Virus record (IMG/VR): IMGVR_UViG_3300021254_000004
Span: 1 to 41,685 of that record
Reading direction: 5' to 3' (one strand)
Length of the DNA: 41,685 nt
Source of the DNA: a virus
Below, piece by piece: positions 4,510-40,827 of the stretch. The notes below the pieces were generated by a model, which searched no databases, was not told where the DNA came from, and saw only the letters and a list, made by a program, of their open reading frames with translations. Position 1 is the first letter of the stretch. Every line of letters starts with the position of its first letter. Made by a program: the position numbers and the translations under genes.

Positions 4510-4515
4510 GAGCAT

Positions 4516-4553
4516 AAAAAAAGCCCTTGGCTAACGGCAATTAGCTAGAGGGC
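4516..4553 (-). terminator. minus-oriented intrinsic terminator
   Basis: Minus strand reads GCCCTCTAGCTAattgccgtTAGCCAAGGGC followed by TTTTTTT, which is the plus-strand A-run at 4516-4522. Confidence 0.55.
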
Positions 4554-4574
4554 AAACATAAACATTACAAAGGT

Positions 4575-4603
4575 ATTTTAACATGAAACGAAAAAAAGAA
4601 CAA
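4575..4603 (-). promoter_or_regulatory. candidate minus-strand promoter TTGTTC-17-TAAAAT with TG extension (TGTTAAAAT)
   Basis: Plus-strand gaacaa at 4598-4603 and attttaaca at 4575-4583. With the 4516-4553 terminator it would give an RNA of about 50 nt. Confidence 0.35.
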
Positions 4604-14326: not shown

Positions 14327-14398
14327 AGGGATATAGCAAAGGGGTGAATGCGACAGACTTTTAATCTGTAGGCGTAGGTTCGAATCCTACTTTCCCTG
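14327..14398 (+). tRNA. tRNA-Lys (anticodon UUU), divergent
   Basis: Hand-folded cloverleaf. The acceptor stem agggata/tttccct has 6 of 7 pairs, with a T-T mismatch. The D stem has 3 bp with GG in the loop. The anticodon arm is acaga-cTTTTaa-tctgt. The T arm is gtagg-TTCGAAT-cctac. No CCA is encoded. Confidence 0.6.
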
Positions 14399-19687: not shown

Positions 19688-19758
19688 GCGCTCTTAGTCT
19701 AACGGAAAGACGTTGGTCTCCAAAACCAAAAATATGGGTTCGATTCCTATAGAGCGTG
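19688..19758 (+). tRNA. tRNA-Trp (anticodon CCA)
   Basis: Hand-folded cloverleaf: gcgctct / gtct-aacggaa-agac / ttggt-cTCCAaa-accaa / atggg-TTCGATT-cctat / agagcgt. The anticodon and T arms resemble bacterial tRNA-Trp. Confidence 0.85.
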
Positions 19759-38123: not shown

Positions 38124-38450
38124 ATGAATGATGTGATTGTACAAGCAGCTATGCTTATTTTGACAGGTCTAGCTGGTTTTATCGTTAAAACCGTAAAAGA
38201 TTATCTTTACAAAGAAGGCGGTGAGAAAGCGCTCAAAATCGTTGAAATCATCGCAAAGAACGCTGTTAACGCAGTTGAGCAGATTGCTGAAGAGGATACT
38301 AAAGGTTACCAAAAACTTAGCGAGGCAAAAGCTAAAGCTAGAAAGAGCCTAGAAGCTCACAATATTTATTTAACAGATAGTCAGCTGGAAATGTTTATCG
38401 AAGCAGCAGTTAAGGAAATGAATGACGCTTGGAGAGGAGAAAGCAAATGA
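38124..38450 (+). CDS. holin (LL-H-like by recollection)
   Basis: SD GGGAGAAG precedes ATG 38124. The N-terminal TM is VIVQAAMLILTGLAGFIV. It lies directly upstream of the lysin and overlaps it. Confidence 0.65.
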   Translation: MNDVIVQAAMLILTGLAGFIVKTVKDYLYKEGGEKALKIVEIIAKNAVNAVEQIAEEDTKGYQKLSEAKAKARKSLEAHNIYLTDSQLEMFIEAAVKEMNDAWRGESK

Positions 38451-39292
38451 ATACAGACATTTTAATCAATTGGTTCGAAAGCCGTCGAGGAAAACTTACT
38501 TATAGCATGTATGGCAGTCGTAACGGTTCAGACGGCACAGCAGACTGTTCTGGTTCGATTTCTCAGGCTTTGAAAGAAGCGGGAGTAAATATCATCGGAT
38601 TGCCGTCAACAGTGACTCTAGGCTCACAATTGGCAAATAACGGCTTTTATCGAGTATCTAAAAATGAAGACTGGAACGGACAGCGTGGCGACATTATTTT
38701 GATGTCATGGGGCGCTGATATGTCGCAATCTGGCGGAGCTGGTGGGCACGTCGGAGTGCTAGAGGACGCTAACACATTTATTTCCGTTGACTACTGGACT
38801 GGCGGACAAGCAGGGACAGCAGTGTCATCTCACAACTGGGACCAATATTACGCTATCGAAAAACCAGCCTATATCGAAGCTTGGCGCTTTAGCGGGTCAA
38901 CAGCTACACAGCCTAACACAGTAGTCTCAGGTGGTCGTAAACCAGACAGCAAAGCTTACTATCTAGCGAATGATGTAGCATTTGTTAACGGTATCTATCA
39001 AATTAAATGTGACTACCTAGCGCCTGTTGGCTTTGATTGGTCTGATAACGGTATTCCCGTTGGTCTAGTCAATTGGGTAGATGAAAACGGCAACAACTTG
39101 CCTGACGGTCAAGACAAGGACTTTAAAGCAGGTATGTACTTCTCATTTGAGATTGACGAGGCACACATTACAGACACTGGCGAAGGTGGCTACTATGGTG
39201 GTTACTATTGGCGTAAATTTGAGTTCGGTCAGTTCGGCACTGTATGGCTTTCTTGTCGAGATAAAGACGATTTGGTCAACTATTACAAATAA
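38447..39292 (+). CDS. endolysin: Pal-like Amidase_5 N-terminal domain plus a C-terminal cell-wall-binding domain
   Basis: WFESRRGKLTYSMYGSRNGSDGTADCSGS...RGDIILMSWGADMSQSGGAGGHVG aligns by eye with pneumococcal phage Dp-1 Pal. Confidence 0.9.
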   Translation: MNTDILINWFESRRGKLTYSMYGSRNGSDGTADCSGSISQALKEAGVNIIGLPSTVTLGSQLANNGFYRVSKNEDWNGQRGDIILMSWGADMSQSGGAGGHVGVLEDANTFISVDYWTGGQAGTAVSSHNWDQYYAIEKPAYIEAWRFSGSTATQPNTVVSGGRKPDSKAYYLANDVAFVNGIYQIKCDYLAPVGFDWSDNGIPVGLVNWVDENGNNLPDGQDKDFKAGMYFSFEIDEAHITDTGEGGYYGGYYWRKFEFGQFGTVWLSCRDKDDLVNYYK

Positions 39293-39443: not shown

Positions 39444-39472
39444 TTGACATTATATCGTATATATACTATAAT
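39444..39472 (+). promoter_or_regulatory. consensus sigma-A promoter P1 of the accessory island
   Basis: TTGACA at 39444-39449, 17-nt spacer, TATAAT at 39467-39472. Confidence 0.8.
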
Positions 39473-39525: not shown

Positions 39526-39654
39526 ATGAAGCGTGCAGAACGCAGGCAACAAAAAGAAGCGCAGAAGTTGGAACAACAAAAGCTTAAATTAGGATTAATC
39601 ATGTTAGCCCTTGATATCCTATATAAGTTAGTTGAACTACTTAAACGCTTCTAA
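39526..39654 (+). CDS. 42-aa peptide with a charged N-terminus and hydrophobic C-terminus (MKRAERRQQKEAQKLEQQKLKLGLIMLALDILYKLVELLKRF)
   Basis: Manual translation. SD AAGGGAG lies 8 nt upstream. It is followed by a terminator. Confidence 0.45.
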   Translation: MKRAERRQQKEAQKLEQQKLKLGLIMLALDILYKLVELLKRF

Positions 39655-39822: not shown

Positions 39823-40011
39823 ATGCCTGAAAAAGCAGGTCAAACAGCAGCACAAAAGAAGGCTGACAAAAAATGGAACGAAAAAAACAGAGAACACCGC
39901 AATTACATGACTAAAAGGTCAACGGCTAGGGGTTTTATTCGTAACCATGCGACAAAAGAAGATTTACTTGAATTACAAGAACTTATCCAAGAAAATCTAA
40001 AAAAATTTTAA
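39823..40011 (+). CDS. small basic protein (62 aa), unknown function
   Basis: ORF track, with SD AAGGAG. Confidence 0.65.
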   Translation: MPEKAGQTAAQKKADKKWNEKNREHRNYMTKRSTARGFIRNHATKEDLLELQELIQENLKKF

Positions 40012-40019
40012 AAAAGTTC

Positions 40020-40048
40020 TTGACATATTATAGTATATATACTATAAT
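40020..40048 (+). promoter_or_regulatory. consensus sigma-A promoter P2, a near-duplicate of P1
   Basis: TTGACA at 40020-40025, 17-nt spacer, TATAAT at 40043-40048. The 15-mer TATATATACTATAAT is shared with P1. Confidence 0.8.
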
Positions 40049-40054
40049 AAAAAC

Positions 40055-40215
40055 ATAAAGAAAAGGTTACCCGCCAACAATCGCCAAACCGTTACGGATA
40101 ACCTAGAAACAATCCACTTAACTAAGTAGATATGTGAATATTATAGCATAGGTACCTAGTTAAGTAAAGCTTACTAGGTACTTTTTAGTACCTCTAAAAA
40201 GAAAGAGGTAAAAAC
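40055..40215 (+). promoter_or_regulatory. ~160-nt structured 5' leader (hairpin, antiterminator, terminator, anti-SD); candidate riboswitch or attenuator
   Basis: H1 pairs 40064-40073 with 40095-40104. The antiterminator pairs 40116-40124 with 40157-40165. The terminator spans 40152-40186. TACCTCT 40188-40194 pairs with the SD AGAGGTA 40203-40209. Confidence 0.5.
40152..40186 (+). terminator. intrinsic terminator inside the leader, 30 nt upstream of the 203-aa ORF
   Basis: gtacctagt (40152-40160) pairs with actaggtac (40173-40181), followed by TTTTT. Confidence 0.7.
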
Positions 40216-40827
40216 ATGAAAATACTTGAACTTGAAGTAAAATACGTTAACCAATACGCAAGCGACGACTACATTTTGAATGACTTTGAACTTTCTGAAG
40301 AAAGTCTTGAAGAACTCGCTAAGCTTTTAGGTTTGAAAGAAAATGAAGATTTTGACGACGTTAAAGACGAAGCAGCACAATGGTTCTTGGATAATTACGA
40401 AGAAGAAAACTCAAAAGTTGAAGCAACTGAATTTTACAACCGTACTATCAGCCACAAAGATATCTCAGTTTCTTACGAAGCTGACCTAGTGGCGGAATAC
40501 AACGATACTAAAATCATTGCTCACGTTGACTTTGAACAAGATTGTTTATATAACAACGCTGAAGCTAAACAAGTACTAGCTGAACAACCTAAAAAGCTTT
40601 ATCTTAGCGGAATTGAACACGTTGAATACATTGAAGATTTTGAAGAAATTCAAAACGACTTTGAAGAAGATTATTATGACGACTGGTTTACTTACGACGA
40701 AGAAAATTATGAGTGGTGGGAAGAGTTAGCGAACGCTTTGTATGAATTGGAATGTGAAGGCGTTGATATTAAAGCAATGGAAGTAAATGAGTTACAAGAT
40801 TACATTGACGCATATAATGAATTATAA
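40216..40827 (+). CDS. hyper-acidic 203-aa protein, unknown function (DNA-mimic-like composition)
   Basis: ORF track, with SD AGAGGTA. By my count it has 38 E plus 22 D against 12 K plus 1 R, and it is rich in Y/W/F. Confidence 0.8.
   Translation: MKILELEVKYVNQYASDDYILNDFELSEESLEELAKLLGLKENEDFDDVKDEAAQWFLDNYEEENSKVEATEFYNRTISHKDISVSYEADLVAEYNDTKIIAHVDFEQDCLYNNAEAKQVLAEQPKKLYLSGIEHVEYIEDFEEIQNDFEEDYYDDWFTYDEENYEWWEELANALYELECEGVDIKAMEVNELQDYIDAYNEL

Follow-up and report, generated by a model that had tools for sequence, protein, structure and literature searches.

A recombining leader of Streptococcus prophages that probably acts as an antisense-RNA-controlled transcription attenuator

The DNA considered here is the whole 41,685-nucleotide (nt) stretch of the IMG/VR virus record IMGVR_UViG_3300021254_000004, hereafter the window, with coordinates counted from its first letter. 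Judged from its nearest relatives, it appears to be the right end of a prophage of the Streptococcus bovis / S. equinus group. From left to right are found a tail fibre gene, a holin gene, a lysin gene (38429-39292), several small open reading frames (ORFs), a 62-amino-acid (aa) ORF, a promoter called P2, a leader, an ORF encoding an acidic protein, a terminator and, on the minus strand, a serine recombinase gene. The leader, ~165 nt long between P2 and the acidic ORF, is the subject of this report, together with the antisense RNA that probably controls it. Its 5' end would lie near 40055, and its elements are listed below with the promoter and the gene that flank them.

40020-40048, plus strand: sense promoter P2, TTGACA and TATAAT with a 17-nt spacer, 12/12 positions of the sigma-70 consensus
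40064-40073 / 40095-40104, plus strand: hairpin H1, arms AGGTTACCCG / CGGATAACCT, 90% complementary, 21-nt loop
40116-40165, plus strand: antiterminator hairpin, arms 40116-40134 and 40147-40165, 19 nt each, 84% complementary
40116-40127, plus strand: small anti-antiterminator hairpin ACTT-aact-AAGT, from the minimum-free-energy (MFE) fold, complement of stem-loop 1 of the predicted countertranscript (ctRNA)
40152-40186, plus strand: intrinsic terminator (attenuator), one bulge in its stem (40152-40181), followed by TTTTT at 40182-40186
40176-40193, plus strand: alternative helix AGGTACT / AGTACCT, joining the 3' arm of the terminator to the segment past the U-run
40189-40195 / 40204-40210, plus strand: anti-Shine-Dalgarno (anti-SD) TACCTCT and Shine-Dalgarno (SD) AGAGGTA, from the MFE fold and the inverted-repeat scan
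40216-40827, plus strand: regulated gene, putative ORF product, a highly acidic protein of 203 aa

The original prediction had described four leader elements, i.e., H1, an antiterminator helix, a terminator and an SD-masking helix, and all four are present upon direct reading and in an inverted-repeat scan; their coordinates were also right for all but one pair, the anti-SD and SD having been placed one base too low. The core of the antiterminator is a perfect 9-base-pair (bp) helix of ACTTAACTA (40116-40124) with TAGTTAAGT (40157-40165). Regarding the terminator, its core is formed by GTACCTAGT and ACTAGGTAC at 40152-40160 and 40173-40181, with 12-13 pairs in the fold, and its 5' arm shares bases with the 3' arm of the antiterminator. 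The 168-nt leader folds with an MFE of -39.1 kcal/mol, to be compared with -24.0 +/- 3.5 kcal/mol for dinucleotide shuffles (z = -4.36; equalled by 0 of 200 shuffles). The small hairpin at 40116-40127 is predicted to hold the 5' arm of the antiterminator once the terminator forms; counterparts that differ in sequence appear in the full-length MFE folds of the relatives presented below, and the complement of this hairpin, stem-loop 1, is found in all predicted ctRNAs. The U-run of the terminator can also pair with an A-run located between the anti-SD and the SD (CTTTTTAG / CTAAAAAG, 40181-40201), which constitutes an alternative pairing.

Relatives were gathered from collections of phages, viral contigs and genomes by BLAST and by pattern scans, and at least 32 distinct related leaders were obtained from Streptococcus prophages, with hosts including S. 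equinus, S. suis, S. agalactiae, S. mitis, S. vaginalis and S. rupicaprae. To examine the helices, 21 leaders were aligned with MAFFT (alignment A1). Pairing in H1 and in the terminator is preserved in 86% of the cells of A1, against 68% after shuffling and 27-41% with slid partners, and both sides have changed in 15 of the 20 pairs concerned. The covariation score of these two helices is 0.49, compared with 0.18 in shuffles, a value that 0 of 500 shuffles reached; for the H1 stem, covariation is seen in 11 of 12 pairs. Since the antiterminator region aligns poorly, the antiterminator was tested by partner swapping: duplexes of cognate halves have a mean energy of -14.7 kcal/mol, against -7.8 +/- 3.2 kcal/mol for halves swapped among unrelated members, and the corresponding values for the terminator are -13.9 and -8.6 +/- 2.3 kcal/mol. 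The helices are thus kept by compensatory change and cognate halves pair best, which argues that the attenuation switch is real. The alternative helix at 40176-40193 is paired in 92% of cells across relatives and its sequence is near-invariant, hence it gains no support from covariation.

The collection of homologous leaders and the covariation analysis had both been suggested along with the original prediction, and its central proposal, transcription attenuation by a mutually exclusive antiterminator and terminator, is borne out by the overlap in sequence, by covariation (H1 and terminator) and by the energies of cognate pairing, on which the swap test of the antiterminator relies. Its view of the leader as a candidate cis-regulatory RNA can even be extended, as this RNA proves to be conserved and mobile, with at least 32 related leaders and compensatory changes among them.

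Between H1 and the 3' arm of the terminator, the invariant columns of A1 are solely the TG, the -12 T, the -11 A, the -9 A and the -7 T of a promoter located on the minus strand. These columns sit in the apical part of the antiterminator, the place where constraint at the RNA level is least expected. The minus-strand features of the window are the following.

40168-40140, minus strand: antisense promoter from the promoter scan, -35 box TTTACT (40168-40163), 17-nt spacer, TG (40148-40147), -10 box TATAAT (40145-40140)
~40133 to ~40057, minus strand: predicted ctRNA of ~77 nt, composed of stem-loop 1, a short spacer, stem-loop 2 (H1) and a U-run
40055-40063, minus strand: U-tract UUUUCUUUAU, which follows H1 on this strand, predicted 3' end of the ctRNA

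The -10 box of this promoter falls within the apex of the antiterminator and its -35 box within the loop of the terminator. At the equivalent place, TGn followed by TATAAT, TATACT or TACAAT is present in 32/32 members, with a -35 box (TTGACT, TTTACT or TTGCxx) 16-18 nt upstream. The antisense promoters score 10-13 of 14 (mean 11.3), compared with 8.0 +/- 1.1 for dinucleotide shuffles and 8.0 when this interval is read on the sense strand, and a score of 11 is reached by 1.4% of the shuffles. A T-run after H1 on the minus strand, i.e., an A-run before H1 on the plus strand, is likewise found in all 32 members, and the matching A columns are invariant in A1. Read on the minus strand, H1 with this U-run forms an intrinsic terminator signal and corresponds to stem-loop 2 of the antisense RNA. 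The ends of the ctRNA, as placed from these promoter and terminator signals, would give an RNA of 77-91 nt across the 32 members.

In the window, the predicted ctRNA folds at -27.8 kcal/mol (z = -4.9), and its two-hairpin plan is also that of the antisense RNAs of 17 relatives and of RNAI from plasmid pT181. Its complementarity extends over the first ~78 nt of the leader and takes in H1, the linker and the antiterminator 5' arm; 15 of the 17 paired bases of this arm are inside the ctRNA-complementary region, and the full sense/antisense duplex is computed at -140 kcal/mol. The plus strand carries the conserved core of the H1 loop as CGCCAAACCG; its antisense RNA version, GGUUUGGCG, holds UUGG, a YUNR-type motif. 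A YUNR loop touching a terminator loop has been described for bsrG/SR4. Elsewhere in the window, no convincing second copy or complement of the H1 loop was found: 15 matches with at most two mismatches were counted where 8 +/- 3 were expected, and the sole exact match is the leader itself. A covariance model built from the phage antisense RNAs recovers one strong copy in the window.

A weak match to the same model (21.5 bits, E ~0.07) lies at 4514-4580 on the minus strand; the hairpin there, GCCCTTGGCTAA...TTAGCTAGAGGGC, follows an A-run and so has the form of a terminator on this strand. It is located just upstream of a 59-aa ORF and is devoid of an adjoining antiterminator/terminator pair.

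A search of Rfam, another of the checks suggested at the outset, showed that the leader is absent from this database at curated thresholds: in gathering and permissive scans, the window leader gave solely chance-level matches to microRNA and small RNA (sRNA) models. A permissive scan was also run on eight relatives, among which the sole relevant match was that of ctRNA_pT181 (RF00242) to L004 (L-numbers are locus labels for the relatives), at 955-1046, on the strand and at the place predicted for the antisense RNA (962-1041). L004 is the closest relative of the window; it has the same acidic gene and a leader 92% identical 3' of H1, the H1 module alone being different. The match covers model positions 1-94, i.e., the full model, with 42.6 bits (E = 0.008 in 43 kilobases, 3.8e-5 locally), which is below the gathering threshold of 56 bits; pT181 itself scores 105.6 bits. 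The terminator loop of L004, AAACUUUGGUCGGGGA, is nearly identical to the consensus of pT181 RNAI, AAACUUUGGUcaGGGa. With L004 below 56 bits and the window RNA unmatched, the window is therefore not filed under RF00242.

We consider it likely that the leader is a countertranscript-driven transcription attenuator whose effector is the antisense RNA encoded in cis. The original prediction had left the effector among an unspecified ligand, protein, tRNA or sRNA; it listed an sRNA among the candidates, and overlooked that the effector RNA would be encoded antisense inside the leader itself. From the signals in the DNA, synthesis of the ctRNA, its pairing with the leader and the resulting termination can be pictured as follows. 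With the sense leader started at P2 and antisense RNA lacking, the nascent leader would fold the antiterminator from 40116-40134 and 40147-40165, and RNA polymerase would read through into the acidic gene. The minus-strand extended -10 promoter (40168-40140) would yield an RNA of ~77 nt ending at H1 and the U-run. When this RNA is present, the first contact would probably be a loop-loop interaction at H1, through the UUGG motif; pairing would then sequester the 5' arm of the antiterminator, the terminator at 40152-40186 would form and transcription would stop. Expression of the acidic gene would be limited or timed by the level of antisense RNA, which may itself be set by gene dosage, by the time since infection or induction, or by the RNA of a resident prophage. 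In silico, a nascent leader that ends ahead of the terminator 3' arm folds into the antiterminator in 21/21 members, and masking of the ctRNA-complementary region leads to the terminator in 21/21 members, 7 of which flip from a state with no terminator.

Several points weigh against this mechanism. The terminator is already the MFE structure of the free full-length leader in 14/21 members, including the window, so that read-through must rest on co-transcriptional folding kinetics. The antisense signals of the window are among the weaker ones, with TTTACT as -35 box and an interrupted U-tract (UUUUCUUUAU), and P2, strong and convergent, could occlude the antisense promoter. No match to RF00242 was obtained for the antisense RNA of the window, even at E <= 10, and pT181 RNAI is not recovered by the covariance model of the phage antisense RNAs. 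In addition, the strong conservation of the H1 loop exceeds what complementarity in cis needs and hints at an extra constraint, either U-turn geometry or a host factor.

Among the other explanations, the one that survives best, although we judge it clearly unlikely, is that the antisense RNA or its promoter acts mainly by another route, i.e., transcriptional interference, cleavage of the duplex by RNase III or an effect on translation, as for P22 sar and pMV158 RNAII. Indeed, P2 (40020-40048, plus strand) and the antisense promoter (40168-40140, minus strand) are convergent, with predicted starts ~78 bp apart, and convergent transcription plays a part in plasmid pIP501 (PMC4981023). The location of the SD in a conserved hairpin and the very high stability of the full duplex also fit such a route. 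However, complementarity to the ctRNA stops at ~40133, short of the SD (40204-40210) and of the start codon, and a covarying terminator in competition with the antisense-targeted segment would be purposeless. Interference, RNase III cleavage or translation effects could nevertheless add to attenuation.

The possibility that the leader is a sensing attenuator, in which a ligand, a protein or a tRNA acts in trans at H1 or the antiterminator and the minus-strand signals are incidental, appears to us very improbable. Like metabolite riboswitches, T-box leaders and the RAT/LicT, PyrR and TRAP systems, the leader combines a mutually exclusive antiterminator and terminator, here real and conserved, with sequestration of the SD; its H1 has a conserved loop on a variable stem, as expected for a recognition loop, and a small protein gene is located immediately upstream in every member. 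These upstream proteins belong, however, to at least three unrelated families, which argues against a constant protein partner, and the H1 half recombines independently of the antiterminator/terminator half. Unlike riboswitches, T-box leaders and targets of protein antiterminators, the leader matches no Rfam family and has no conserved sensor domain or multi-helix core, and a promoter on the opposite strand accounts for its conserved nucleotides, the positions at the antiterminator apex fitting the extended -10 box one by one.

The H1 loop itself also speaks against a sensor. The 18-nt loop CTCAAACGCCAATCCGAC of Javan326 (L051) is exactly reverse-complemented in L059, L109, L157 and L268, whose leaders are 88-97% identical to that of Javan326 outside the loop, and Javan565 (L047) has an inverted loop core too. 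Because the stems are inverted repeats, this change amounts to a simple DNA inversion between the stem arms. Such an inversion would ruin a sequence-specific site on the sense RNA and would spare the sense/antisense loop pair, in which the roles would merely be swapped. The term "riboswitch-like" used in the original prediction is hence not retained: no conserved multi-helix aptamer is present, the invariant positions beyond the terminator and its U-run are those of the antisense promoter, the H1 loop is found inverted in relatives, and the effector is most likely the countertranscript.

Least credible of all is a pair of small RNAs with functions of their own, e.g., in immunity or addiction, made of a sense RNA of ~130 nt, with its end at 40186, and of an antisense partner, with the acidic gene reached by incidental read-through; a strong promoter followed 130 nt downstream by a good terminator, in a module that changes genomic context independently of the downstream gene, would suit such a pair, but a conserved anti-SD/SD unit shortly precedes the start codon in 19/21 aligned members and an antiterminator kept by covariation makes sense only if read-through is selected.

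Three further candidates were rejected on their own grounds. A leader peptide was discarded since the ATG-TGA at ~40132 is not conserved in relatives. Proteins of the HutP or TRAP type, recognizing UAG repeats, were set aside as TAG triplets, frequent in the window, are, by eye, not so in L018-type relatives. As for a T-box, its sequence is absent and no Rfam match was obtained.

Regarding translation, the original prediction had proposed that masking of the SD is part of the switch. The anti-SD hairpin is indeed kept in 19/21 relatives, with one compensatory variant (CCUC/GAGG to CCUU/AAGG); its coupling to the switch is unsupported by folding. In silico, the SD of the window remains masked even when the antiterminator is enforced, with a probability of being unpaired of 0.11 versus 0.03. 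As the SD is still paired in the enforced antiterminated state, the anti-SD hairpin is treated here as a standing brake on translation rather than as a demonstrated part of the switch. A further idea, in which the 3' arm of the terminator would pair with the anti-SD segment upon antitermination and so release the SD, was dropped, this helix being conserved but invariant and the SD being masked in the antiterminated ensemble.

The proposed mechanism is of a known kind, as illustrated by plasmids pT181 and pIP501. The repC leader of pT181, with its RNAI and RNAII, was reportedly the countertranscript-driven attenuator described by Novick et al. in 1989. Like pT181, the prophage module has a short (here predicted) antisense RNA made of two stem-loops and a U-tail, whose promoter lies inside the leader and which is complementary to the 5' leader; both have a leader terminator just before the start codon, a competing "preemptor" pairing and a recognition loop with UUUGG. 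The two differ in what they control, a phage accessory gene here and a replication initiator there, and also in their layout. In the repC leader, which we read directly, the SD is part of the terminator and the H1-equivalent hairpin supplies the preemptor with its 5' arm, whereas in the prophage leader the 5' arm of the antiterminator is a separate segment 3' of H1 and the SD has its own hairpin.

In pT181 and pIP501, antisense-RNA-induced attenuation is joined by a small Cop protein, and a U-turn loop is of importance (PMC4981023, PMC5703833). The order found in pIP501, i.e., CopR, promoter pII, leader with RNAIII and repR, resembles that of the window: pIP501 and the Inc18 group likewise have a small regulator gene (a putative one in the window), a strong sense promoter and a long attenuator leader with a convergent antisense promoter inside it, and loop-loop initiation through a U-turn (YUNR) loop is a further likeness (PMC4981023), as is the palindrome in the sense promoter, a possible Cop-type operator. 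In contrast, RNAIII of pIP501 is 136 nt long with four stem-loops, compared with ~77 nt and two stem-loops for the window ctRNA, the model of the protein upstream of the window leader is a helical hairpin and not an HTH, the gene controlled is other than rep, and plasmid BLAST revealed no sequence similarity. Plasmid BLAST with the window and Javan52 leaders gave no match, and with H1 of L004 alone it gave weak matches to small staphylococcal and S. thermophilus plasmids.

Phages offer a second point of comparison, as in P22 immI (arc - sar - ant) and P1/P7 (c4 - ant) an accessory or regulatory gene located just after a very small regulator gene is also under antisense control. In Javan52-type relatives, an RHH-like gene is followed by the leader and then by an Ant-type anti-repressor gene (PHROG 847, E = 2e-50), an order that recalls arc-sar-ant. 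In P22, the sar RNA covers the ribosome-binding site of ant and so prevents its translation, and c4 of P1/P7 acts on icd translation with Rho-dependent polarity. Unlike sar, the ctRNA of the window (~40057-40133) stops short of the SD (40204-40210) and is associated with an intrinsic attenuator, and Rfam scans of the window and relatives gave no sar match.

To judge from Rfam and the searchable literature, what is new is the setting: prophage accessory genes are gated by a recombining cassette in which the antiterminator arm is separate and the loop is polymorphic by inversion. Literature searches returned no description of the leader module. The related leaders occupy several prophage sites, namely the lysin-integrase end, a position beside the integrase, the early region and a divergent cassette next to the terminase, and the genes downstream of them are mutually unrelated. 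Javan288 (L002, 1381-1640), Javan237 (L003) and Javan238 carry the upstream gene and promoter of the window, and the leader is absent. In Javan288 and Javan237, the palindrome is also common with the window and a ~35-nt untranslated region precedes a different acidic protein. These loci, with upstream gene and promoter but no leader, indicate that the leader is an optional insert between promoter and cargo. A mosaic leader, L068, has an H1 half 96% identical to that of Javan214 (L052) and an antiterminator arm, CTACTTAACTAAGTAG, that matches the window, from which we conclude that the H1 half and the antiterminator/terminator half recombine independently.

The H1-type hairpin and its loop were also seen outside Streptococcus prophages, in the S. 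thermophilus plasmid pST5A (L272, 704-821, minus strand), in a contig binned to a Sarcina sp. metagenome-assembled genome (MAG; L164, 5424-5496) and in L153 (8295-8372). The pST5A sequence scores 32.5 bits against RF00242, which is sub-threshold, and the contig binned to the Sarcina sp. MAG and an AT-rich viral contig score ~45 bits with the phage antisense-RNA model.

If antisense-controlled attenuation is correct, a plasmid copy-number device, placed beside a small regulator gene, would have been taken up as a mobile expression cassette by Streptococcus prophages, its gated cargo being fast-evolving accessory genes such as orphan acidic proteins, the Ant anti-repressor and others. This would add a family that Rfam misses at curated thresholds and would explain how strong consensus promoters at prophage ends are restrained. 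It would also supply a natural set of orthogonal sense/antisense attenuators with differing stems and a common plan, of which the pT181 type is already used in synthetic biology, and the exact loop inversions would represent a natural experiment on loop-loop recognition.

A further step, conceivable but doubtful in our view, would make the module a portable cassette for accessory genes whose specificity resides in RNA: a resident prophage, through its antisense RNA, could silence in trans the corresponding cassette of a phage that enters or shares the cell. This idea stems from the diversification of stems and antiterminator arms, comparable to that of plasmid incompatibility groups, around an H1 loop that is kept. 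Were it true, the silenced cargo could be an anti-repressor or a candidate counter-defence gene, and the module would provide streptococcal phages with an RNA layer of superinfection immunity or with a timer for an early burst followed by shut-off. In that case, the loop common to pT181, the S. thermophilus plasmid and the contig binned to the Sarcina sp. MAG would be the sign of a recognition module that is ancient among the mobile elements of Firmicutes and that a host factor may read.

Finally, two features located upstream of the leader complete the locus.

39823-40011, plus strand: upstream small ORF, 62 aa, basic, matching PHROG 2277 at E = 3e-26
40026-40049, no strand: perfect 24-bp palindrome TATTATAGTATA / TATACTATAATA, spanning the spacer and -10 box of P2, candidate operator

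The 62-aa protein is modelled by AlphaFold2 as a two-helix hairpin (pLDDT 85) devoid of a helix-turn-helix (HTH). By analogy, its ORF occupies the place of the small Cop-type regulator of comparable plasmid systems and may have such a function. A very small ORF is found just upstream in every family member, the families, at least three, being PHROG 2277, ribbon-helix-helix (RHH)-like and Cro-like HTH. In relatives that have a promoter of their own, the sense promoter matches 11-12 of 12 consensus positions with a 17-nt spacer. At the P2 position, each subfamily has a different palindrome, such as CATAGTATT/AATACTATG, CATAAT-N6-ATTATG and AATCCT/AGGATT, which looks like a set of operators with differing specificities, and the palindrome at 40026-40049 could be a Cop-type operator.

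The regulated genes in the window and its relatives are not plasmid replication initiators; they encode the orphan acidic protein, diverse small proteins and the Ant anti-repressor, and the downstream genes of the relatives are small, often acidic and mostly of unassigned function. The acidic protein of the window is an orphan: it has a single related cluster, 97% identical, among 5.8 billion proteins. Searches of Pfam, PHROG and NCBIfam gave nothing over curated cut-offs, the Pfam and NCBIfam matches being far below and the PHROG matches being to two families of unknown function (E = 3e-8 and 5.5e-7). A sequence search of the PDB gave no match, and the single-sequence AlphaFold2 model is unusable (pLDDT 39).

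Elsewhere in the window, a second promoter with 12/12 sigma-70 consensus positions is located at 39444-39472, 3' of the lysin gene and its terminators and before a 42-aa ORF (39526-39654). The prophage also contains two tRNA genes, at 14327-14398 and 19688-19758 (Rfam tRNA model, 71 and 65 bits, respectively).

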